Virus genome (UHGV): UHGV-0114988
Direction: 5' to 3' (one strand)
Source: a virus
DNA length: 22,338 nucleotides
Position 1 is the first letter of the stretch. Each line of letters begins with the position of its first letter. Below are positions 4,104 through 16,633 of this stretch, piece after piece. A model generated the notes under the pieces. The model was not told the origin of the DNA, ran no database searches, and saw only the letters and a program-made list of their open reading frames with translations. A program made the translations under genes and the position numbers.

Positions 4104-4442
4104 GCATGTAAAAAGGCTCCTGCGATGAGGAGCCTGGATATATGCCTAATCTCTGTATACAGCATGATGCCGGGTGCCTCCCGGTGAGTTCAGTATCAGC
4201 ACCTGAACCCGCACCAGATAAGGGATATAACCAACCACCTGTCGCTGATATGCCCCTCCGCACAGGGGGATTCACCATGCCAGTTTCTTTTAACAAATAC
4301 TCAGTCTGACAGGCAACTGTCAACTGACTGAATTGTGAGACATTTAAAATTTTCGGGGCATGACTGATACCCGGCTAACCACCTGATGCTTCCTTTTTTA
4401 GCAACAAACAGGTCCACCAAAGTGAGACAGAAAAAATAAGTG

Positions 4443-4519
4443 TGGCGCGTTGTACTGGATTCGAACCAGTGACCGATTGCTTAGAAGGCAATTGCTCTGT
4501 CCGGCTGAGCTAACAACGC
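4443..4519 (-). tRNA. tRNA-Arg (anticodon UCU), 77 nt
   Basis: Minus-strand sequence GCGTTGTTAGCTCAGCCGGACAGAGCAATTGCCTTCTAAGCAATCGGTCACTGGTTCGAATCCAGTACAACGCGCCA folds as a cloverleaf: 7-bp acceptor stem, anticodon stem ATTGC/GCAAT with loop CTTCTAA, T-arm ACTGG-TTCGAAT-CCAGT, and an encoded CCA. Confidence 0.85.
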
Positions 4520-4689: not shown

Positions 4690-5112
4690 TTATAACCATA
4701 ACATATTTTTTTGTGCGCACACAACCCTTTCAGGTAGTACAACTTCAGGATCCATATCCAACCTTACTCCCTGCAGAGTCAGAGCTCCTTCCAGAAATGC
4801 TTCAGACGCCTTCAGGGATGTCCGTACGCTAAAATGACTACGGTCTATCGCCTCAGCAATTGCACGCGTTGAGAGGCCGCCTATAAAACGTAACCCCAAG
4901 ATCAGCAAATCATCGTACGGGCAAACCATACTCATATGCGCGATGCAGGTATCAATCACCGCTCCATCCTCGTCAGAGCAACCGGGTTTGCCACTGTCGG
5001 TTACGTCCCGGGAAGTAACCGACATTGAGGGCCAGTCAACCATTGAACAGTATTCCTCGCTCGCCGCCCATCGCCCCCACCGCTCCAGAACAAGTTGCAT
5101 ATCTCTACGCAT
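4690..5112 (-). CDS. Q: Late-gene antiterminator Q (phage 21/933W-type Q family)
   Basis: N-terminus MRRDMQLVLERWGRWAA resembles 21/933W-type Q proteins as recalled. Position is immediately upstream of the tRNA/late lysis region. Confidence 0.65.
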   Translation of the reverse strand: MRRDMQLVLERWGRWAASEEYCSMVDWPSMSVTSRDVTDSGKPGCSDEDGAVIDTCIAHMSMVCPYDDLLILGLRFIGGLSTRAIAEAIDRSHFSVRTSLKASEAFLEGALTLQGVRLDMDPEVVLPERVVCAQKNMLWL

Positions 5113-5242: not shown

Positions 5243-5433
5243 TGGAACCACCTGCCCCCACCTGGAACCACCTTTTCCTAACCTTTCCCTCAATCGACTT
5301 ATATATATATATGGGGTTTCTAGTAGAAAGGCGGTTCCAGTGGTTCCAGTAGTTCCGCCCCGCTTGCCACAAGGTCTGCAAGGTGGAACCACCTTCTCTT
5401 TTAGGTGGTTCCGCATGGTTCCAGCGGTTCCCA
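5243..5433. repeat. Iteron array with central (AT)7 tract; candidate replication origin
   Basis: The 11-mer TGGAACCACCT occurs directly at 5243, 5263 and 5384, and inverted (AGGTGGTTCC) at 5403. Three tandem 9-mers GGTTCCAGT lie at 5333-5356, with further GGTTCC units at 5417-5433. The tract TATATATATATAT lies at about 5298-5312. The array sits immediately 3' of the primase-helicase gene and overlaps its last codons. Confidence 0.55.
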
Positions 5434-7587
5434 AACCTTGCATTTTTTCCCCCCAATTCGCCTTTGGGCACGCTTATACCCGCAATTTTGCAAAACATTA
5501 CTAATTCGCATTTCTTCGCGTTTTCCGATGCGGTCAGGATTTAGCCCAATCGCATCACGCAAAACATCACTTGCGCGTAAAAATTCGCAATTTCGCGGAA
5601 GTTCATTAGTCATCAGGTCGGGCGTGTCGAGCCATTTCTCTACCGTTTCAAGCCAAGCATCCTTGATGGTGTACTGTTCATGGACACTCGCTGCCAGTTG
5701 TTCAGCCTCACGGAACTGGATACCCCCCAGACGCTGAAACACCTCACGAGCCTCAGCCCAAAGTAAAAGGAGATCTCTTTTTATCGCTTTCACGTCGACT
5801 TTCGACACTTCCACGGGGAGCCAGCGACGGTTACCAGTCTTGTCCGCAAGGAATTCGTCCTCATTGGTGGTACCAACGAACAGCAGGCGACGAGGAAACT
5901 GGGTGGCGAACTCCCGGTATTTCGGGATCCAGTTTTCGTGAGTACGCGTCACAAACGCTTTGATTGACTCCAGCTCTTTGGTATTAAGTCCGCGCAGTTC
6001 ACCAATCTCTGCCACCAGCCGACCACGCATTTTTCGAGCGAGATCATCGTCTTTTTCGGCAAAAGAGATTTCAGTAAAAAACGCAGGATCAGGGCTCAGT
6101 GCCTCCACTCCGGAAGACTTACCGCAGCCCTGCGGACCAACGAGGATCGGCACCATATCCGCTTTGATGCCTGGCTCCAGTACTCGCCCCGCCAACGCGG
6201 TCCACATGTACATAGACACCGCACGGGTATAAGGCGTGTCGGCGGTACCGAAGTGCGTATGGTAGAAACATTCGATGCGCGGCACGCCATCCCACTCCAG
6301 TCCGTTCAGCCAGGTGATCGCTGAATCGAATGGTTGTTCATCGGCTGCAAGTAACACCACATCGCGAATAAGTTCACGGCCAACAGGTTTAAATCCCCGC
6401 TTTTCCATCGTGATGCGCAGGCGCGCATAATCCGCATCGGTGAATGCCCGCCATTGTCCGGATCCTGCCGGGGCAAACATGATTTCGTCGCGGAACTGGT
6501 CAAAGCGAATATCGATGTCCACAAAATCAGGACGTACTACTGCTTTGGCTGCGTTGCTGATGGTTGCCTCGATACGCCCCCATTTATCACGCTCGAAAGC
6601 AGGCAGCGGTAAAGGTTCCGCCACTTCGATGCTGGTCAGATCTTCGAAATCGTCGTTGCGGATCCCGATGGCATTCAGGAAATCTCCGTCATCACGATGC
6701 GCGCAACTGGCATGCAGGCATTTAAAATGCCCCTGCTCAAAGCCTGCGGTTCCCGCAGGAAAATAAACTGTGCTTGTTGGATCGCCTCCGCTACTGTGGC
6801 CGTCTTCAAACGGACAGCGGATATATCGTTCACCGTTTGCACCATCCAGCAGCGTCCAGCCATTGGCATCAAGATATTCAGCTGTATCATCCGTCGCGCC
6901 GGGCGTGAATGCTGAACGGTCGCGCATCTTCGTGTTGCCCGCTTCGGTGGTTACCGACACAGGGAGTTGTTCAGCCAGGCGCTGCCACAGCGTTTCAAGC
7001 TGCTCACCTGTAATAGCCGGAGGTTCATCCGGCAAACCACCGTCCCATTCAATACGCGCGCCGCTGCTGTGCGTACCACAGGCAACGAACTGCTGCCCGT
7101 TCGCCAGCAACTCGATAATGCCCATATCCCCCGCCAGGCGATGGATACGCTTACGGAAATCACCATCAACGGCCAGCAGATACAGACACTTATTACTGTT
7201 TGCTCGCCAGCGTCGCGGCGGCGACTCACCCAGAAGTTGCACAAGTGTTTTGCGAATATCTGCCTGAATGTCTTCATCTTCGCTATCGCAGTCCAGCGCC
7301 AGCCAGCCATGGCCTGTACGCACGCAGATGCCATAATCCGGTTCATTCGACCAGCGGGCAAAATCATGCTCAGTAACAACATGCCCGGTCCATTGAGCAA
7401 TACCGGTGACCTGGCGGTCCCGGTTATAGCGACTCGGCGTCTTACCCAACGCTTTCAATTTACTATCAGGGGATATGGTCGCACTGGGGTTACATACAAC
7501 TGGGAGAAGATGAGCAGTCCGCCCCAATACCAGGTCGAAATGAAACCACTCATCAGGCGTAGCTCCCCATGTTTTGCTATCGGACAT
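5401..7587 (-). CDS. Replication primase-helicase: N-terminal PrimPol/AEP-like domain fused to a VirE / P4-alpha-type Walker-A NTPase domain, 728 aa
   Basis: Acidic DxD-type motif (WLALDCDSEDED) in the N-terminal half. Walker A ILVGPQGCGKSSG and surrounding region resemble phage/plasmid primase P4-family C-terminal (VirE-like) domains. AAGGTG RBS; ATG at 7587 directly follows the cro-like stop. Confidence 0.8.
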   Translation of the reverse strand: MSDSKTWGATPDEWFHFDLVLGRTAHLLPVVCNPSATISPDSKLKALGKTPSRYNRDRQVTGIAQWTGHVVTEHDFARWSNEPDYGICVRTGHGWLALDCDSEDEDIQADIRKTLVQLLGESPPRRWRANSNKCLYLLAVDGDFRKRIHRLAGDMGIIELLANGQQFVACGTHSSGARIEWDGGLPDEPPAITGEQLETLWQRLAEQLPVSVTTEAGNTKMRDRSAFTPGATDDTAEYLDANGWTLLDGANGERYIRCPFEDGHSSGGDPTSTVYFPAGTAGFEQGHFKCLHASCAHRDDGDFLNAIGIRNDDFEDLTSIEVAEPLPLPAFERDKWGRIEATISNAAKAVVRPDFVDIDIRFDQFRDEIMFAPAGSGQWRAFTDADYARLRITMEKRGFKPVGRELIRDVVLLAADEQPFDSAITWLNGLEWDGVPRIECFYHTHFGTADTPYTRAVSMYMWTALAGRVLEPGIKADMVPILVGPQGCGKSSGVEALSPDPAFFTEISFAEKDDDLARKMRGRLVAEIGELRGLNTKELESIKAFVTRTHENWIPKYREFATQFPRRLLFVGTTNEDEFLADKTGNRRWLPVEVSKVDVKAIKRDLLLLWAEAREVFQRLGGIQFREAEQLAASVHEQYTIKDAWLETVEKWLDTPDLMTNELPRNCEFLRASDVLRDAIGLNPDRIGKREEMRISNVLQNCGYKRAQRRIGGKKCKVWEPLEPCGTT

Positions 7588-7791: not shown

Positions 7792-7932
7792 ATTTAAGTC
7801 TCCACTTTCGTCTATAGCGCAAATTTATACGAAAACGGATTACCCAGCAATACAGCAATTCTATGTCATCCTAGATTAAAATATCCGATAACGCATAATC
7901 ACCGTCCCTGTATACAACATGGATGAATCCAA
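7792..7932. promoter_or_regulatory. Divergent promoter/operator region between cro-like and cI-like genes
   Basis: 141-bp intergenic region containing a minus-strand TATAAAT (+ strand 7823-7829), the palindrome TGTATACA (about 7909-7916), and the motif GATAACGCATAATCA (7887-7901) that recurs twice downstream of cI. Confidence 0.5.
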
Positions 7933-8607
7933 ATGATTGATACTACCGATATCCTTTCTCAAAACATCAAGTACCTGATGGACAAAGCCAAGATAAGCTC
8001 GATAACTGAGCTGGCACGTCGGTTACAGCTGAACCAACCAACGCTACACAGGCTGGTATCAGGAGAGGTGAAAGATCCGAAATACGCAACGTTAAAGCAG
8101 ATCGCCGACTACTTCCACGTGTCACCAATAGACTTGGCAGAAAGGAGCCTTCAAGAAATGGAGAAAGAGGACGCGACAGGTATAAAAACGTATATTTCTC
8201 TTAGGTTTAATAAAGTACCTGTTTTGGGAAACACTCAGCTAGGCGTTGGAGGACTTTGGAGCGACACCCAATATTCAGTAGGTAGCAGTGATGGTTTCAT
8301 ATACTGGCCGACAAAGGATGAAGATGCATACGCCCTGAAATGTGTTGGTGATTCAATGATGCCTAGAATCAAAGAGGGGGAGTTCGTAATCGTCGAACCC
8401 AACCACGACTACACTCCTGGTGATGAAGTACTTGTGGTTACCCGGGACGGTGAGGTCATGGTTAAAACCTTCTTGTTCGAACGCGATGGCCTGTTCCATC
8501 TAATGTCTGTAAATGAAGATCATCCACCAGTCAGAGTACCACGCGAAAACATTGAAAAAATCCATTACGTGGCGGGGATCGCCAAATCCGCGCTACGTAT
8601 GTACTAA
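7933..8607 (+). CDS. cI: CI-like prophage repressor: N-terminal HTH plus C-terminal LexA/S24-type autopeptidase domain
   Basis: N-terminal HTH (SITELARRLQLNQPTLHRLVSG); C-terminal GDSMMP (Ser nucleophile) and VMVKTF (Lys) consistent with an S24 Ser-Lys dyad; 224 aa. Confidence 0.85.
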   Translation: MIDTTDILSQNIKYLMDKAKISSITELARRLQLNQPTLHRLVSGEVKDPKYATLKQIADYFHVSPIDLAERSLQEMEKEDATGIKTYISLRFNKVPVLGNTQLGVGGLWSDTQYSVGSSDGFIYWPTKDEDAYALKCVGDSMMPRIKEGEFVIVEPNHDYTPGDEVLVVTRDGEVMVKTFLFERDGLFHLMSVNEDHPPVRVPRENIEKIHYVAGIAKSALRMY

Positions 8608-8640
8608 CCTTTACAGTCTGATAACTTACTTCTGATCAAA

Positions 8641-8670
8641 CCGCTCTCCACAAGGGCGGTTTTCTTATTT
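8641..8670 (+). terminator. Intrinsic terminator after cI (CCGCTC-loop-GGGCGG plus TTTTCTTATTT)
   Basis: 6-bp stem (including one G-U pair) followed by a T-rich run, 34 nt after the cI stop. Confidence 0.45.
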
Positions 8671-8691
8671 GCAAAATAATTCATTTTCGCA

Positions 8692-8721
8692 TTGACACAA
8701 AATCCCATAACGCATATAAAT
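8692..8721 (+). promoter_or_regulatory. Near-consensus sigma70 promoter (TTGACA-17 nt-TATAAA(T)); candidate early-left pL-type promoter, overlapped by operator-like repeats
   Basis: TTGACA at 8692-8697, 17-nt spacer, TATAAA at 8715-8720. Motifs CATAACGCATATAAA (8706-8720) and GATATCGCATAATCA (8724-8738) overlap the -10 and start region; the latter matches the cro/cI intergenic site at 14 of 15 positions. Confidence 0.5.
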
Positions 8722-8756
8722 ACGATATCGCATAATCAATGCATTTTTTAATACTG

Positions 8757-8768
8757 GCTCTTTAACAA
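8757..8768 (+). promoter_or_regulatory. boxA-like antitermination element GCTCTTTAACAA
   Basis: 12-nt identity to the rrn-type boxA core (UGCUCUUUAACAA) as recalled, about 35 nt downstream of the predicted start of the pL-like promoter. Confidence 0.4.
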
Positions 8769-8913
8769 ACTAAACCGCGTGACAGGTAAGCCGCAGTACT
8801 CCTGGCAAAATGAAATGGCACCCGATGGGATCGAGGTAAGCGCCGAGTCCGTATGCGTACGGTAAGCGTAGAGGACAACACCGCGACAAACTGATAAGTC
8901 ACGCAAGTTGAAA

Positions 8914-8944
8914 CGCCCCGACGATGGGGCGCTTAGTTCCTTTT
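8914..8944. terminator. Hairpin CGCCCC-GACGAT-GGGGCG with U-rich flanks (terminator-like, possibly bidirectional)
   Basis: 6-bp GC stem; CTTAGTTCCTTTT follows on + strand and TTTCAACTT on - strand. Lies about 80 nt 3' of the minus-strand gene 9026..9550 and about 190 nt downstream of the pL-like start. Confidence 0.35.
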
Positions 8945-9025
8945 GGGGTGGGGTGAAGATCAGTCCATTGAGTCAATCCGAAGTTCAGCATCTACCACTA
9001 CACCACCACCAAAGAGAACTGCTAA

Positions 9026-9550
9026 TCATCTGGCAGGTTGTAACGGTGCAGGAATTTTGCCACTGACTTCTATATTTCGGGGAAATTTATATTCAGCGGA
9101 GCATTTATGACACTTGAGAATTTTATAAGCGGCATTAGAAGTATGGTATTGAAGTATAGACTTCATACCCGACTCATAGCATGTAGTACAAAGATAATGA
9201 GGCTTGAACTCAGGATCGTCAGTAGGCTTCAGTACATAGACCACCGTATTGGTAATCGGGTGGTACATTTCATAGTTCATTTTCTCACTATCCCAATCCT
9301 GTTTCTTTTCCAGAAGGGATTCGAGTTCAACAATGCGCTGTTTAGCTTCGTTCAAAAGCTCCGTTAGTGCGAATTGTCCAGTACGCGCATCAATTAGTTT
9401 ATCAAGTAGATCGATAGTTTTACTTTTAACATTGTAATCCACCTGCAACGCATTAACTTCTTTTGCTAAATCAACAGCACCTTTCAAAGCACCACCAGCA
9501 CTAGTGGCCGCCTCAGTTATACGCCGTACAAGTCCTTTTTCTTCAGACAT
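9026..9550 (-). CDS. Hypothetical coiled-coil protein with C-terminal Cys4 zinc ribbon (174 aa); moron-like gene opposed to the early-left operon
   Basis: ATG ORF; N-terminal 100 aa predicted helical/coiled-coil; CxxC...CxxC (CTTCYE...CHKCSAEY) at the C-terminus. No family recognised. Confidence 0.55.
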   Translation of the reverse strand: MSEEKGLVRRITEAATSAGGALKGAVDLAKEVNALQVDYNVKSKTIDLLDKLIDARTGQFALTELLNEAKQRIVELESLLEKKQDWDSEKMNYEMYHPITNTVVYVLKPTDDPEFKPHYLCTTCYESGMKSILQYHTSNAAYKILKCHKCSAEYKFPRNIEVSGKIPAPLQPAR

Positions 9551-9570
9551 CTTAATTCTCTCTAAAACTA

Positions 9571-9620
9571 TAGGGGTAAAGAGATATTAGCCGAATTCTC
9601 GCTGTAGGGGTACAGAGAGA
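9571..9620. repeat. Two direct repeats TAGGGGTA(A/C)AGAGA spaced about 34 bp, upstream of the minus-strand gene 9026..9550
   Basis: Read directly at 9571-9584 and 9605-9620; plausible promoter/operator elements. Confidence 0.3.
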
Positions 9621-9678
9621 GCCATCTCGTCTGACGTGGTTAAAACTGACATCCATGTAATTGCTGTGTGTAGCCTTT

Positions 9679-9707
9679 GCCCGCCTCAAGTGACGGGCTT
9701 TTTTATG
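9679..9707 (+). terminator. Intrinsic terminator (GCCCG-N10-CGGGC plus TTTTTTAT) on + strand
   Basis: 5-bp GC stem, 10-nt loop, 6-T tract, about 55 nt upstream of the small ORF at 9764. Confidence 0.4.
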
Positions 9708-9763
9708 TCTGAAAGCGCACTCGCAACAGCGCGCTCCCCGATATGAAAAAAGGAATACAACCG

Positions 9764-9913
9764 ATGAAACCTGAACACATCCATCGACTGACGGGGCGCG
9801 ATGTTCTCCGTTATCGCCGTAAAAACTTCGATTTGATGACCGGTCTGGCCGTTGCCACTGCGCTCGGTCTGATCATCACTTTCATTCTCCTTGTAGCGAG
9901 GACCACAGTATGA
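9764..9913 (+). CDS. Hypothetical small tail-anchored membrane protein (49 aa; alternative start at 9743 gives 56 aa)
   Basis: [49 protein letters not shown]: basic N-terminus, C-terminal TM helix. AAGGA RBS 8 nt upstream. Stop TGA overlaps the ATG of the next gene (ATGA). Confidence 0.4.
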   Translation: MKPEHIHRLTGRDVLRYRRKNFDLMTGLAVATALGLIITFILLVARTTV

Positions 9914-10812
9914 GTTTAGAAACCAGTCTCGAACTTAATAATCAACTTCTGGCACAACATAATGCGCTGCTTGAACGTCTTATCCGCACAATGGCATCAG
10001 GTATTGTTATGCATCCTGACACGATTTCACGAGTGCAGGAATGTCGGGATACAGCAACTGAAGCTGAAAACATGTCAGCGGCAATGACACTGGATGATCT
10101 GGAGTTCAGCGACGTTATCGCACTGGCTGGTTTCTACCCGGTAGCCACCCCTATCACAGAAGACATGCTGCAACGTGCTGTTGCCTACCGTGATGCTGAA
10201 GGCGATAAACGAGTAGTTCAGATTGATGCTCTCGACAGCGCATTGCAGGGCGTCAAACGAGCCAGGGCGCTGCTTAAACCTGCTCTCCTGGACCTGTCCC
10301 GTAACATTCTTAAGTTCTGGGACGACCTGCCAACCATCGGCGAGCGACGTGCTTTTGCCGAGCAGCTACTTGATGCACCTGCAGATGGGCGTGATGAAGT
10401 TAAACCGAAAAAGGCTAGTGACAAAGATGGAGAACGCACGGGGCCGTTTTACGTCAAAAATATATCCGGCACAGCAGCCAGTGAACTCCACACCTTACGC
10501 AAGTTGAACGAGATGCTTAAAAAAGGCCATATCGAGATCAACCGTGTTGAGTACCTTCAGCTGCAGGAAGAATTTGCACGCAGAGACGCAGCAAATTCCA
10601 GCCAGAATAATGACGCCAAAGATGACCATACAATTGATTTCGCGGCACTACGCAAACAAGCTGAAGGGTTGATCCTCCAGTTAGCAAAAGGGGGTTACCG
10701 GGCAGAAGCTATTGCAATTCTGGAAAAACAGGGAGCCAGGAAACTTGGTGAAGTAATGGATGAAAATCTCGCTGAAGTAATCACCCTAGCTGAAAAAGCA
10801 CTGGAGGGTTAA
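9910..10812 (+). CDS. Hypothetical acidic helical protein (300 aa), first large gene of the rightward replication/recombination operon
   Basis: Long ATG ORF in operon context, translationally coupled on both sides. No motif recognised. Confidence 0.55.
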
Positions 10813-10814
10813 TC

Positions 10815-12116
10815 ATGCCAGACGTTCACGCACAACTTTCTCCATCATCAGCGCATCGATGGATGCGCTGCCCAGGAAGTCTGGCGCTGGAGGCCACACA
10901 ACCGGATAAAGAAACAACTTTTGCAATCGAGGGCACTGCAGCGCACGCGCTTGCTGAAAAAGTTCTACGAAACAGGCAAAGCCACCCGGAACACTACGCC
11001 GGATGCAATGTTTCTATGTTTCTCGGCTCATACCCCCTTCGCGAAAATCCTGATGATACATCTGGCCCACAGGTGGATGATGAAATGGTCGAAGCCGTTG
11101 GGCGGTATGTTGATACGGTCTGGACTCTTGCACAGAATAATGAACTATTGGTTGAACAACGTGTTGATTTCTCACATATAACGGGGGTGGAAGAATCTTT
11201 CGGAACTGCCGACGGCATAATCATCGCTGGTAACGAATTACAAATCCACGACCTGAAATATGGCAAAGGCGTCCGCATTGATGCAGAACAAAATGAGCAA
11301 CTACAACTGTATGCTCTGGGTGCGCTCGAACAATTCAGCATGCTGTATGACTTTGAGACTGTAAGATTATTTATTCACCAGCCAAGGCTCAACCACGTTT
11401 CAGAATGGTCATTAACCGTACAGGAACTTCAGTCTTTCGGTGAACGGGCACAGGAGGCCGCAACCAGTGCGATCCTTGTTCTCAATATTGCTGAATGCGA
11501 AGGCATTGAGACACTACCGCTGGAAAACTTCATACCTGGAGAAAAACAGTGCCGCTTCTGTAAAGCAAAAGCTATTTGCACTGCCCAGAAAATGCAGCAT
11601 TTACAAACAGCGGCCAGCGATTTTGAAGATCTGACAAAGCCTGTCAGCGAAATAATCACCAATGCCAGCGCACGTGTACCTCTGTTAACCATTGAGCAGC
11701 TTGCGGAGATCTATAGCCAGGCCGACTTTATTGAATCCTGGCTAAAGGCAGTACGAGACCGGGTTCACAATGAACTCAATGCCGGACATCCGGTACCGGG
11801 GTTTAAACTGGTAACAGGAAAACAAGGTAACCGGGCCTGGAGTGATGAAGAGGCAGCTCGCGCACTTCTGAAGGACCAGTTCAGGTACAAAACTGAAGAA
11901 GTATTCGACTTTAAACTTATTAGCCCCACAAAAGCCGAAAAACTTATCAAAAAGGCCAGTCCGCGCCGTTGGTCAAAAGTCGAGGCACTGATAACACGAG
12001 CTGATGGTAAACCCACCGTCGTTCCCGAGTCAGACCCACGCCCCGCACTCAATATTAACCCTATAAATGATTTCGACGACGTATCCGACGATACGCTAAC
12101 CGCAGACCTCATCTGA
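10815..12116 (+). CDS. PD-(D/E)XK nuclease, Cas4/RecB-like phage exonuclease with C-terminal Cys cluster (family often annotated DUF2800)
   Basis: N-terminal [15 protein letters not shown]-x-K-type motif IHDLKYGKG, Cys cluster [10 protein letters not shown] suggesting an Fe-S or Zn site. 433 aa. Family assignment from memory. Confidence 0.7.
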
Positions 12117-12131
12117 TTTAAGGAAATCCCC

Positions 12132-12680
12132 ATGAAACTGAAGCTGAACAATGTTCGTCTGGCTTTCCCGTCTCTGTTTGAAGCTAAAACTGTAAACGGC
12201 GAAGGCGATCCACGTTTCTCCGCAGTATTTTTAATGTCACCCAAACACCCACAACTGGAAGAAATCCGTAAAGCTATGAAGCAGGTAGCGAAGGAAAAAT
12301 GGGGAGAGAAGTGGGAGTCCATTTATAACCAGCTGGAGAAAAAACTCAATCTGTGCCTGCATGATGGTGATGAAAAAGCAGAGTATGAAGGCTTCCCCGG
12401 TAATTTCTTCCTGAATGCTGCTAACAAAGCGCGCCCTGCTGTTCTTGATCGCGATCGTTCGCCACTGATTCAGGCTGATGGACGTCCCTATGCAGGGTGC
12501 TATGTAAACGCCGTTATCGATATCTGGGCACAGGACAATAATTTCGGTAAACGCATTAATGCCTCACTCGGCGGAGTCCAGTTCCTGCGAGACGGCGATG
12601 CATTCGCTGGCGGCGGAGTGGCAAGCGCTGACGATTTCGACGATATCAGCGAAGGTGCTGATGCTGAAGCACTGATTTAA
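12132..12680 (+). CDS. Phage ssDNA-binding-like protein (DUF2815-type), 182 aa, acidic C-terminal tail
   Basis: N-terminus MKLKLNNVRLAFPSLFEAK resembles DUF2815 proteins that accompany family-A polymerases in phage replication modules (recalled). Acidic tail DDFDDISEGADAEALI is SSB-like. Confidence 0.6.
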   Translation: MKLKLNNVRLAFPSLFEAKTVNGEGDPRFSAVFLMSPKHPQLEEIRKAMKQVAKEKWGEKWESIYNQLEKKLNLCLHDGDEKAEYEGFPGNFFLNAANKARPAVLDRDRSPLIQADGRPYAGCYVNAVIDIWAQDNNFGKRINASLGGVQFLRDGDAFAGGGVASADDFDDISEGADAEALI

Positions 12681-12720: not shown

Positions 12721-13063
12721 GCAAAGGGGAATATGCCCAGAGCTACCTGTATTGTTCTGGTTAGCACCCAGTCGCCCTGCTACCCCGATATTGACTCATC
12801 GCCCCCTTCCGGTTTATGCTCACCGAATCTCCCAAATGGAGATCGGGATTTGCAACCCGGAATTGTTAGGGGCGACACCAGACGCGCCAGCGTCTTTTTT
12901 ATTGTCGCAAGCTTTGCCACGTTCGCATTATGGCGGGCTGGCGGGGGCGCTTCGGCGCGCCGGTTTCCTCTAACGCCGGTATTGCAAACCTCGTCAGTTC
13001 GCCACCCATATGAGATTTGCAACTCAGTGGTGGCGGTGAATTTCACCGTTAGAGGTAACTGTG

Positions 13064-13828
13064 ATGGCAACTCAGCTCATCCCCGTTTTCAACGGCGCTA
13101 TCGCCAACGAAACCACCCTGCTCTGCAATGCTCGCGATCTGCACGCATTCCTTGGGGTAGGGAAAGTGTTTGCAGCGTGGATTACATCACGAATTGCAGA
13201 CTATGAATTCGTTGAAAATCAGGATTATATCGTAACGTTTTCCAAAACTGGAAAGCGTAAAAATGTTCTTTGTAAGGACTACCACCTCACTCTCGATACA
13301 GCCAAAGAACTGGCGATGGTGGAGCGCAACGAAAAAGGCCGCCAGATCCGCCGATACTTCATCGAGTGCGAAAAGAAACTTCGCCAGCAATCCTCCACGA
13401 TACTGGCGCCACACAGGGAGTGTCTGCCGAAGATGGTTTACCATCACCGGAGCAAATACAATCCGTACAGGGCTTATGCATGGGACGGAGAGAAAAGCGT
13501 TTACGTCGGGTGCTATCCGACTGTGGATGAGGCTGTCGCTGCTCAGGAACGCTTCTACCGGAACGGCAGCACGAAACGCATTCAGAAGGCGCAGACAGCA
13601 GTCAGTGACGCAGAGAAGGAAATGTTCATCAACAATCTCCGCGCCGTCTGCCATAACTTCCGGCGCATCAATGAAATCTGGCGGGCGCAGTTAATGCCTG
13701 CTCTCGAAAAAATGGATTCGAAACTGGTTTACCAGCTGCATGACCGCTTCAGCGACAGCATGTGCATTCTGCCGACCATAGAAGACCGCATCGGCAGATA
13801 TATTCCGCCGTCACAGCTTCCACACTAA
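13064..13828 (+). CDS. AntA-family antirepressor-like protein with uncharacterised C-terminal domain (254 aa from ATG; track start is GTG at 13061)
   Basis: N-terminal region (ARDLHAFLGVGKVFAAWITSRIADYEFVENQDY ... YHLTLDTAKELAMVERNEKGRQIRRYFIECEKKL) resembles the AntA/AntB N-terminal domain as recalled. AGAGG RBS. Confidence 0.6.
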   Translation: MATQLIPVFNGAIANETTLLCNARDLHAFLGVGKVFAAWITSRIADYEFVENQDYIVTFSKTGKRKNVLCKDYHLTLDTAKELAMVERNEKGRQIRRYFIECEKKLRQQSSTILAPHRECLPKMVYHHRSKYNPYRAYAWDGEKSVYVGCYPTVDEAVAAQERFYRNGSTKRIQKAQTAVSDAEKEMFINNLRAVCHNFRRINEIWRAQLMPALEKMDSKLVYQLHDRFSDSMCILPTIEDRIGRYIPPSQLPH

Positions 13829-14569: not shown

Positions 14570-16633
14570 ATGTCCAATATACTATGGGGCGACCTGGAAA
14601 CTTTCTGTGAAATATCTATCAATAATGGCACCCATGCGTATGCCGAAGGCGTTGAAGTGATGCTGTTCGCATGGGCTATCAACGACGGGCCAGTAAACGT
14701 GTGGGATATCACTGCCGGTGGTGGTATTCCACACGGCTTATACGAAGCAATCGCAGCCCCTGAAACCCTGCTTTATTTTCATAACTCTCACTTCGACCGC
14801 ACCGTCCTGCGTTATGCAATGCCGCGCCTGGCACCGCCAGTCGAACGTTGGCGCGACACAATGGTGCAGGCGCTGGCGCACGGTCTCCCGGGGTCTCTGG
14901 GGGAACTCTGCGAAGTACTAGGCGTCCCGCAAGACAAAGCGAAGGACAAAGAAGGTAAAGCGCTGATCCAGCTGTTCTGTAAGCCACGCCCGAAAAACAG
15001 CAAACTGCGCCGGGCCACCAGCAAAACCCACCCGGAAGAATGGCGGCGCTTTGTTGCTTACGCCGGACTGGATATCGAGGCAATGCGCGAAGTCTGTAAA
15101 CGTCTGCCGAAGTGGAATTATCAGGGGACAGAACTGGCGCTCTGGCATCGTGATCAGCAGATCAATGACCGGGGCGTCTGCATGGACGTGGAACTCGCAC
15201 GCGCTGCGATCGACGCGGTAGACCAGGAACAAAAGCGCCTGGCAAAGCGTACACAGGAAATGACTGATGGCGAAGTGCAGGCAGCCACACAACGAGACGC
15301 GTTGATTAAGCACATTGTTGAATCCTACGGTGTGGAGCTACCAGACATGCAACGCAGTACTCTGGAACGTCGTATTGCCGACCCCGATTTACCATCTGCC
15401 GTGAAAGAACTGCTGGCTATCCGCCTGCAGGCCAGTACTACCAGCACCAGTAAATACAAGGCACTGATGAAAGGCGTAAGCCACGACGGGCGCTTACGCG
15501 GTACGCTACAGTTCTGCGGGGCGTCACGTACCGGTCGTTGGGCCGGACGGCTATTCCAGCCCCAGAACCTTCCCCGCCCTTCACTCAAACAGGAACAAAT
15601 AGACGAAGGCATCGAAGCACTGAAAGCCGGATGTGCAGACCTGCTGTTTGACAATATCATGGAACTAACCAGTTCAGCGTTACGTGGCTGCATTATCGCG
15701 CCAACAGGCAAAAAGCTGGTGGTAAGTGACTTGTCGAACATTGAAGGCCGTATGCTGGCATGGCTGGCGGGAGAAAAATGGAAACTGAATGCATTCAGAG
15801 AGTACGACGCCGGGACGGGTCCGGACTTATATAAACTGGCGTATGCAAAAGCTTTCGATATTGCACCAGATGATGTTGATAAACACATGCGTCAGATCGG
15901 TAAAGTCATGGAACTCGGTCTGGGTTATGGTGGTGGTGTGTCGGCCTTCATCACTTTTGCACTGGTTTACGGTCTCGATCTCGACGAGCTGGCGAACGCC
16001 GCACTACCAAACATTCCCCGCGATGTTATCCGCGAGGCGAAAAGCTGGTACGACGAATCGGTTAAACGCAAGTCAACCTACGGGCTTTCTGAACGGATAT
16101 TTATCGCCTGCGACTCACTTAAACGTCTCTGGCGCAGGGCGCACCCGGCGACCTGCGATTTCTGGTACGAACTGGAGCGCACCGTCCGCACTGCAATCGC
16201 CACACCGCAAAAAACATTGTATTGCGGCTATCTTAAAATCCGCCGCGATGGCGCGTGGCTGCGCATACAGCTACCATCCGGACGCGCTGTATGCTACCCG
16301 TCTCCGGTTATCGAACAAGGGAATATCACCTACATGGGTGTTAACTCTTATTCGCGTAAATGGCAACGACTCAAAACCTACGGCGGAAAGCTGGTGGAGA
16401 ACGTCACCCAGGCGGCCGCCCGCGACGTTCTGGCCAGAAACATGCCGCTTATCGAAGATGCCGGTTACAGCATTGTGCTGACGGTACACGACGAGGTGAT
16501 CACCGAATCACCTGACACAGAAGATTTCAACGATAAAGCGCTTTCCGCGCTTCTCTCCACTAACCCCGAATGGGCGCCCGATATCCCACTGAACGCTGGC
16601 GGTTTTGAGGCGTACCACTACCGTAAGGATTAA
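14570..16633 (+). CDS. Family A DNA polymerase (T7/PolI-like) with 3'-5' exonuclease domain, 687 aa
   Basis: Exo motifs GDLETF and [12 protein letters not shown]; polymerase motif [16 protein letters not shown], motif [17 protein letters not shown], motif C LTVHDEVI. Confidence 0.9.

Follow-up and report, generated by a model that had tools for sequence, protein, structure and literature searches.

This study concerns the viral genome UHGV-0114988, a stretch of 22,338 nucleotides (nt) referred to as the window, and within it two overlapping open reading frames (ORFs) on the plus strand, one for a peptide of 49 amino acids (aa; 9764..9913) and one for a protein of 300 aa (9910..10812). From the sequence and its surroundings we propose that they are the first protein-coding genes of a repressor-controlled early operon for recombination and replication, an analogue of pL. 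Our preferred reading, which we hold tentatively, is that the first gene encodes an accessory tail-anchored peptide in the slot of the kil genes and the second a coiled-coil, multi-module adaptor of the APSE P53/BPP-1 Bbp35 family, which would serve the neighbouring exonuclease-annealase pair as a stand-alone counterpart of the RecE N-terminal region. An initial annotation of this DNA had already noted that the pair heads an operon running into a nuclease gene, and this was confirmed. The operon-opening genes of the DUF2800/Gp2.5-like/PolA module are all annotated as hypothetical.

The larger gene starts at ATG 9910, behind its own Shine-Dalgarno sequence (GAGGA, 9898-9902), and stops at TAA 10810-10812. 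The initial annotation had called its product an acidic helical protein of unknown family. The AlphaFold prediction is indeed almost wholly helical, with helices at residues 3-29 and 244-299, but "acidic" was overstated: the protein is mildly acidic (isoelectric point, pI, 5.06; net charge -12), while the adjoining nuclease has a net charge of -23. The same annotation held that neither product of the pair is recognisable, and proposed profile and structure searches for the larger one. In agreement with the first point, the 49-aa peptide has no significant match in Pfam or NCBIfam and none in PADLOC, and the 300-aa protein has no significant match in Pfam, NCBIfam, PADLOC or among PDB sequences; the searches gave no informative fold match for it, and no DNA-binding fold or helix-turn-helix (HTH) was detected. 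They did, however, lead to a family in the PHROG collection. The 300-aa protein matches phrog_6784 over residues 1-300 (E=9.7e-178) and phrog_33976 (E=8.2e-22), and its C-terminus matches phrog_408. With tblastn against phage records it matches P53 of APSE-1 and a 244-aa protein of the Yersinia phages YeP4-6, and Bbp35 of BPP-1 is linked to the family through a minimal family member. Cross-PHROG matches tie together phrog_6784, 33976, 408, 7721 and 3127. On these similarities the protein belongs to the APSE P53/BPP-1 Bbp35 family, itself uncharacterised. An exhaustive HMMER search of 1.84 billion representatives returned only 77 relatives, and a word-indexed homologue search with the profile of a distant member reached only APSE/Arsenophonus-type sequences. 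One distant member carries the UniRef name "DjlA N-terminal domain-containing"; a TerB/DjlA identity was dropped, there being no Pfam TerB/DjlA match at E<=5.

The protein is built from an N-terminal coiled coil (residues 1-30), a linker, a helical module A (60-165), a basic linker, module B (GPFY...VEYLQLQEE, 176-222), an acidic linker and a C-terminal three-helix domain (244-300). In the alignments the N-terminal helix is of the MSLE type, and the C-terminal domain carries the motif LAKGGYR..EAV.IL..FGAKKLG.V....L; this domain is the family hallmark. Minimal family members of 104-133 aa consist of the N-terminal helix and the C-terminal domain alone. Eight of the nine a/d positions of the N-terminal helix fit a heptad register, and insertions and deletions in this helix among relatives correspond to one or about four heptads; together, these two features argue for a coiled-coil oligomer. 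In APSE-1, YeP5 and BPP-1 the early operon has the family gene upstream of those for the exonuclease, the Gp2.5-like protein and PolA; the gene is divergent from a primase and adjoins cI/cro. More distant operons may also open with a related gene: the first gene of the equivalent operon of Burkholderia E332 is the best match of the C-domain profile in hmmsearch (hhalign 86.7%), that of Chi reaches 43% in hhalign, and that of Jersey/HK578 has the C-domain motif only, with a weak hhalign result against Jersey_49. These three matches are weak, though consistent in position.

The middle of the protein points to recombination. Two proteins of 500-513 aa (P0186 and P0188) match it over the second half of module A plus module B: residues 108-223 of the 300-aa protein align to residues 159-264 of P0188 (BLASTP, 7e-13), and HMMER over the whole library recovers both at about 1e-6, while against phrog_6784 they score 5e-14 and 6e-15. 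The N-termini of P0186 and P0188 in turn resemble those of prophage proteins of 720-810 aa (phrog_2489/2082) annotated as "exonuclease"; residues 22-213 of P0188 match the N-terminus of one such phrog_2489 protein at 3e-10. Another phrog_2489 protein has module B itself (40% identity over 60 residues, E=7e-8), and its middle part aligns to residues 293-480 of Rac RecE (E=2e-8). The "exonuclease" annotation of phrog_2489 may rest only on RecE-like similarity of the N-terminus. In RecE, the nuclease occupies the final ~260 residues and what the N-terminus does is described as unclear; linear-linear recombination is promoted by full-length RecE together with RecT, but not by the C-terminal nuclease domain alone (PMC11610958). 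On the above alignments, pieces of the 300-aa protein recur as building blocks in the non-catalytic part of RecE-type recombination proteins. We infer that the protein is a stand-alone recombination accessory or adaptor, because its modules are common to that non-catalytic region and because an exonuclease gene follows at 2 nt and an annealase gene one gene further on. It would act as a coiled-coil oligomer with flexibly linked helical modules, equivalent to a free RecE-type N-terminal region, and would recruit, tether or regulate the exonuclease and annealase at DNA ends or at the replisome.

Several results weigh against this proposal. The comparison by hhalign of the profile of the 300-aa family with Rac RecE was negative (probability 0.05%), as was that with one phrog_2489 protein; because direct profile comparison is negative, the link to RecE is transitive and covers part of the protein. 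For the C-terminal domain of the phrog_2489 proteins, neither Pfam nor PDB gave a match. Sequence change has also been faster in the 300-aa protein than in its replication neighbours (63-75% as compared to 79-95% identity), and its modules are permuted or lost in relatives, a pattern that fits a host-directed or anti-defence protein as well. As for the 49-aa peptide, its orientation with the N-terminus inside is a prediction from hydropathy and charge only, and a KilR-like sequence was rejected, BLASTP giving no alignment at E<=100.

The main rival for the 300-aa protein is accordingly a host-directed early protein, acting against RecBCD in the manner of Gam or Abc or against a defence system, which would protect linear phage DNA or neutralise the host system. 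The gam and abc genes adjoin recombination genes in lambda and P22, and the 300-aa gene is likewise the first sizeable gene of an early operon beside recombination genes. Its fast evolution relative to the neighbours keeps such a role in play; the gain, loss and permutation of its modules and a helical, mildly acidic, probably dimeric (via the coiled coil) product would also suit it. However, the C-terminal domain is conserved in distant phages of different hosts (Hamiltonella, Bordetella, Burkholderia) that have the same replication module, a pI of 5.06 is far from that of DNA-mimic proteins, and the modules occur fused into RecE-related proteins. No PADLOC match was found, in a library without anti-defence proteins. 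On balance we consider the host-directed role rather unlikely.

An organiser of replication initiation or of the replisome, which would bind the origin, load the VapE-type primase-helicase or tether PolA, is still less probable. The family always occurs together with the gene set of primase-helicase, PolA, VRR-NUC and helicase, and an oligomeric multi-module build is typical of organisers. Against this, no DNA-binding fold or HTH was seen, and no iteron-like repeats were noticed in or beside the gene, although no systematic search for them was made. Furthermore, P4-type primase-helicases usually recognise their own origin, and the proteins that share modules with the 300-aa protein are RecE-related recombination proteins rather than initiators. 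The adaptor remains the reading that we prefer for the 300-aa protein.

The smaller gene had been placed by the initial annotation within a pair spanning 9743-10812. Both ORFs are present; the start at 9743, an upstream in-frame ATG giving a 56-aa version, is not conserved. Because this ATG is out of frame or missing in relatives, we take 9764 as the conserved start. The good ribosome-binding site that had been noted is confirmed by AAGGA at 9750-9754, with a 9-nt spacer to ATG 9764, and start and Shine-Dalgarno sequence are conserved across relatives. The stop (TGA, 9911-9913) overlaps the ATG of the 300-aa gene as ATGA, as stated initially, and the overlap is retained in nearly all relatives. 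Likewise, the described basic N-terminus and C-terminal transmembrane (TM) helix were found: residues 1-24 carry a net charge of +4, and residues 27-45 form one hydrophobic segment with a Kyte-Doolittle mean of 2.56. The cytoplasmic N-terminus is conserved as MKPEH(L/I)HRLTGRDVL(R)(Y/W)RRK. The peptide (phrog_11981) would thus be a tail-anchored inner-membrane protein.

With tblastn the small ORF was located in all 80 viral contigs that had been recovered through the 300-aa protein, and also in one species genome, Pluralibacter (57% identity). Its ratio of nonsynonymous to synonymous substitution (dN/dS) is 0.10-0.37 between the window copy and relatives with dS of 0.27-0.81, and the first 22 codons are the most constrained (nonsynonymous, pN, 0.04-0.10; synonymous, pS, 0.33-0.47). 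Given its annotation in RefSeq, the conservation of the pair in at least 80 viral or prophage loci with the ATGA overlap retained, and this dN/dS, the small ORF is a genuine gene. In a large protein collection the peptide forms 54 clusters, all enterobacterial and none named. Ahead of the homologues of the 300-aa protein in Serratia and in Yersinia phage YeP5 stands a divergent version of the peptide (MNSLK..HR(Y/H)R(L/V)TGADF, then a TM helix), unannotated in YeP5.

These data bear on the possibility that the small ORF is a translated leader that delivers ribosomes to the 300-aa gene or protects the mRNA, its peptide being functionless. Such a leader would account for the conserved ATGA overlap and for the Shine-Dalgarno sequence of the 300-aa gene being held within the 3' codons of the small ORF. 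In several relatives, moreover, a repeat-rich gene (SAASNTG- or ARIGSSG-type repeats; L063:4937-5997, L084:5302-5997, L141:2507-3646, L190:13530-13991) is inserted between the two genes, and there the stop of the small ORF overlaps the start of the inserted gene instead (TAATG). A dN/dS well below 1 with the strongest constraint on the N-terminal 22 codons, and the persistence of motif and TM architecture in the divergent Yersinia and Serratia version, make this explanation improbable; the 300-aa gene, in addition, has its own GAGGA and a start that is not sequestered in RNA structure. The same facts qualify the translational coupling stated in the initial annotation. Forced coupling through a sequestered start of the 300-aa gene was ruled out, since the structure of the junction RNA is not unusual (z=+0.73); with this unstructured junction and the gene's own GAGGA, the overlap permits coupling without proving it. 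The 300-aa gene could initiate independently of translation of the small ORF.

The peptide does not accompany the 300-aa family everywhere. In APSE-1 (L089:358-552) and in Mixta-type loci (L006:5762-5905, L124:1639-1782) its slot is taken by an unrelated small ORF that is basic and non-membrane, arginine-rich, free of a TM helix and conserved (..NN.VRRLR[YW]LRK.D.L.RN....FP[VI]TLY), and in BPP-1 there is no counterpart beside Bbp35. By this distribution the peptide is not an obligate partner of the 300-aa protein, and it would be dispensable for the downstream module. The initial annotation had likened it to Kil-type host modulators. The analogy is partly supported, as it holds in position and not in sequence: the gene stands behind a KilS-type seed as kilR does in Rac, but similarity to KilR is lacking and the peptide is replaced or missing in the relatives just named. 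Most likely, then, the peptide is an accessory host-modulating factor that, from the slot of kilR behind KilS, would act on a membrane-associated target of the host, its basic cytoplasmic head of 24 residues being the conserved functional part and its N-terminus lying inside.

Many prophage exclusion proteins and small toxins are single-TM small proteins with a basic cytoplasmic head, and the peptide resembles them in this and in being variable among relatives and replaced in some; nevertheless, a superinfection exclusion or immunity protein expressed in the lysogen, or a small membrane toxin, in place of a Kil-type inhibitor of morphogenesis, merits little credence, because with two hairpins and a repressor-controlled promoter upstream, expression in the lysogen is not expected; nor was there any sign of an antisense RNA or of a toxin-antitoxin arrangement, and PADLOC gave no match.

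The element preceding the small ORF is more surprising than the ORF pair itself. What the initial annotation took for a pL-proximal terminator does have a hairpin and a U-run, but it is not a plain terminator: it appears to be a small RNA (sRNA) module (9660..9704, plus strand) resembling processed RprA and KilS. A permissive Rfam scan of 8600-9800 returned RprA (RF00034) at 9606-9708 with 46 bits (E=2.8e-4); this is below the gathering score of 70 bits, the match being good over the 3' ~50 nt only and poor over the 5' two-thirds. The module comprises the seed ATTGCTGTGTGTAGCCTTTGCCC (9660-9682), a hairpin with the arms GCCCGCC/GACGGGC (9679-9698) and a run of six T (9699-9704). In the alignment with K-12 rprA, the 23-nt block ATTGCTGTGTGTAGTCTTTGCCC is exactly the same in rprA and five relatives, and the window agrees at 22 of the 23 positions, with a change at 9674. 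The core ATTGCTGTGTGTAG is invariant in rprA (L096:573-678), Rac kilS (L218:3706-3803, minus strand), the window and the relatives. The stems differ by compensatory changes (GCCCATC/GATGGGC in rprA, GCCCGCC/GACGGGC in the window, GCCCCTC/GAGGGGC and GCCCGC/GCGGGC in relatives), each with a U-run after it, and stem sequences vary across all copies listed (L097-L216). The similarity to RprA begins at the 5' end of RprAproc, the 47-nt product of RNase E, which coexists with full-length RprA in vivo and is active on narP (PMC9262595, PMC6202311). By this alignment the supposed terminator is a homologue of the RprA 3' domain and of Rac KilS; its counterpart in a core stress sRNA is the processed and active form, and it is the seed, not the stem, that is conserved.

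An exact 21-mer of the module occurs in at least 120 IMG/VR contigs; among the matches listed, one or both genes of the ORF pair accompany it in 51 contigs, and the remaining 69 come from other prophage families. Where representatives of these were examined, the module follows a cI-like repressor gene and precedes either yfdP/Q/R-type genes or the pair phrog_2479 and phrog_2489. In L102, L107, L114, L134, L154 and L172 the RprA-like module is followed by a conserved 107-aa phrog_2479 protein (MEALTIPV...) and then by the 720-810-aa phrog_2489 "exonuclease". In the Mixta-type locus L124 the replacement small ORF is the one placed behind the module. The window has the AUUGCUGUGUGUAG seed and a hairpin after it in the leader region of a small early prophage gene, and this arrangement recurs in other prophage families. 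The relatives are unrelated upstream of the conserved block, so no conserved independent promoter for the module was found among them. In some, the U-run abuts the Shine-Dalgarno sequence of the small ORF and leaves no space for a promoter, which implies that the operon must be read through the module hairpin. An origin of the module as attP or as a relic of host flanking DNA was rejected, as it lies ~11 kb from the integrase gene and, among the matches listed, none has the 5' part of rprA or ydiL. A target of the seed inside the phage was also rejected (best duplex -24.1 kcal/mol; mean of shuffled seeds -23.8 kcal/mol). The term "RprA-like" was found in no paper of the literature searched.

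Termination or processing at the module would release a mimic of RprAproc that rewires the host RprA regulon or titrates Hfq from it, and read-through would switch on the small peptide and the recombination genes. KilS would be another copy, and temperate enterobacterial phages of several unrelated families would place the module at the head of recombination operons. Taken jointly, the two linked readings, namely that the module is a widespread prophage copy of the active 3' domain of RprA and that the 300-aa protein is a free-standing RecE N-terminal region, are possible but doubtful.

Upstream of the module, a near-consensus promoter can be read from the sequence at 8692..8720 (plus strand; TTGACA-17 nt-TATAAA), just past the cI-like repressor gene and its terminator (8638-8662). 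With a final A in its -10 hexamer, it escaped a consensus scan. Sites resembling operators overlap or flank it: ATAACGCATA lies at 8707-8716, and CGATATCGCATAATC (8723-8737) agrees at 14 of 15 positions with CGATAACGCATAATC in the cI/cro intergenic region (7886-7900). Promoter and sites together suggest a repressor-controlled pL analogue. It is followed by a structured leader RNA of ~175 nt (8757..8931, plus strand), recognised by conservation and RNAalifold and ending in a GC-rich hairpin. This RNA keeps 87-98% nucleotide identity across loci with proteins 63-90% identical; of the 45 base pairs predicted in its long closed structure, 7 show compensatory double changes, and two relatives lack one internal hairpin through a clean deletion. 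The region has no Rfam match at E<=1. We regard it as a candidate antitermination or regulatory RNA, with a putative put-like role in read-through. Transcription would then start at the promoter beside the cI-like gene, cross the leader RNA, read through the RprA/KilS-like sRNA-terminator and continue into the genes for the 49-aa peptide, the 300-aa protein, DUF2800, the Gp2.5-like annealase and PolA.

Many relatives have the leader RNA directly ahead of the RprA-like module. In the window the two are separated by an antisense gene for a 174-aa protein (9026..9550, minus strand; phrog_1244) with a coiled coil and a C-terminal CxxC...CxxC region. This gene is a variable insert, missing in most relatives, and stands outside the operon core. 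The repeat TAGGGGTA[AC]AGAGA (9571-9584 and 9605-9618) was rejected as an operator of the operon since it travels with the antisense gene; its two exact copies, upstream of that gene, accompany it in L054 and may be control sites of the antisense gene itself.

The ~1.5 kb around the ORF pair is 99.4-99.5% identical to chromosomal prophages of E. coli strains including A4 and IAI1. The region of the pair was found in 152 of 5,426 complete E. coli genomes, and the isolated phages vB_EcoM-606R2, -689R2 and -611R5 match it at 96.8% identity. Judged by these matches, the window is an E. coli prophage of the IAI1/H10407 type. The IAI1 prophage adjoins yfhL, and its RefSeq annotation (PGAP) lists both ORFs as hypothetical (WP_000801672.1, 49 aa; WP_000051349.1, 300 aa). 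The minus strand of the window carries the terminase, the lysis genes, Q, a VapE-type primase-helicase (5401-7587) and a cro-like HTH gene; on the plus strand are the cI-like S24 repressor (7933-8607), the ORF pair, DUF2800, DUF2815, PolA (14570-16633), a helicase and, at the far end, the integrase.

The few nucleotides reported initially between the pair and the PD-(D/E)XK nuclease gene are a gap of 2 nt, from 10812 to 10815, with GGAGG at 10803-10807. The nuclease is a DUF2800 PD-(D/E)XK exonuclease (10815..12116, plus strand; Pfam PF10926, E=3.8e-110; PDDEXK_1, E=2.2e-10; phrog_69 "exonuclease"), and the next gene encodes a DUF2815/Enc34-type protein like T7 Gp2.5, which binds single-stranded DNA and anneals (12132..12680, plus strand; Pfam PF10991, E=2.4e-44; phrog_112). 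The order small ORF, 300-aa gene, DUF2800, DUF2815, PolA is retained from E. coli to Pluralibacter, and the order from the 300-aa gene onwards reaches further, to Serratia, Mixta and Erwinia. In a Serratia relative, the 300-aa homologue and the DUF2800 gene are separated by an inserted gene of the HNH homing endonuclease type (L004:6741-7259). The module of DUF2800, Gp2.5-like protein and PolA occurs in more than 1,600 sequenced phage records. The C-termini of DUF2800 and DUF2815 (12060-12116 and 12630-12680) are acidic tails of the same kind (DFDD..LI), with DDFDDISEGADAEALI in DUF2815, and the tails of nuclease and Gp2.5-like protein are kept in the Serratia, Yersinia and APSE homologues. 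The common tails suggest a shared docking partner, which could be the basic C-terminal domain of the 300-aa protein, PolA or the primase.

Further features lie outside this set of genes. Between DUF2815 and PolA, a cassette of ~1.2 kb (12827-13828, plus strand) resembles the c4/ant immunity region of P1 and is not in the IAI1 prophage; it has Rfam matches above the gathering score to isrK (12827-12900) and C4 antisense RNA (12926-13009), followed by an ORF of 255 codons (13061-13828, plus strand). On the minus strand, an STnc100 sRNA (4104-4309, 174.6 bits) and a tRNA gene (4446-4519) are found downstream of the Q antiterminator gene (4690-5112), an arrangement that fits a Q-dependent late leader.

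Should the 300-aa protein prove to be an accessory to the nuclease and annealase, it could supply the piece so far lacking for recombineering with the DUF2800/Gp2.5-like/PolA module. With its 300 aa it would, on the same condition, also be a convenient model in which to study the N-terminal region of RecE, an unexplained region that linear-linear recombination requires. The RprA/KilS-like module, if read correctly, would show clearly that phages have copied a regulatory RNA of their host, and through it KilS would be linked to RprA.

Comparison with known systems places these elements as follows. The phage module differs from RprA in being without the 5' stem-loops and the rpoS-pairing region and in its stem sequence; rprA lies between ydiK and ydiL, whereas the module lies inside the leader of a phage operon. 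For leaders whose terminators yield a host-acting sRNA there is the precedent of StxS, which arises by early termination of the PR' transcript of Stx phages (PMC7547250). Here too there is a phage leader with a terminator at its end, from which antitermination control could produce an Hfq-type sRNA for host targets as a by-product; StxS, however, has another sequence and another seed and belongs to the late PR' promoter. Closer is the Rac prophage, whose order is kilS, kilR, ydaE, racC, recE, recT. KilS is a northern-validated sRNA from the 5' untranslated region of kilR, identified in Hfq RIL-seq (RNA interaction by ligation and sequencing) data (PMC8175672). In both loci a small ORF follows an sRNA module that carries the AUUGCUGUGUGUAG seed, and exonuclease and annealase genes come after this ORF. 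KilS has a longer hairpin than the window module, of different sequence, and KilR, a small inhibitor of FtsZ and elongation, has 73 aa as compared to the 49 aa of the peptide.

Within its own family, the 300-aa protein shares the MSLE-type helix, the C-terminal three-helix domain and the operon position with APSE-1 P53 (NP_051014.1), BPP-1 Bbp35 (NP_958704.1) and the 244-aa protein of YeP5 (PHROGs 33976, 6784 and 408-like), all annotated merely as hypothetical. P53 is without module B and Bbp35 without modules A and B; in the Serratia and Mixta homologues module B is placed ahead of module A, unlike in the 300-aa protein, and in BPP-1 extra genes separate Bbp35 from the nuclease gene. Finally, with respect to RecE, neither the N-terminal coiled coil nor the C-terminal three-helix domain was found in RecE-type proteins. 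Also unlike RecE, the 300-aa protein is not fused to a PD-(D/E)XK domain; it ends at 10812, and the unrelated DUF2800 nuclease gene is separate. Nevertheless, the large RecE-related proteins (phrog_2489, 2082, 26058) have segments homologous to the second half of module A plus module B, and Rac recE, the RecE-related genes and the 300-aa gene all stand in pL-type operons behind a KilS/RprA-like module.

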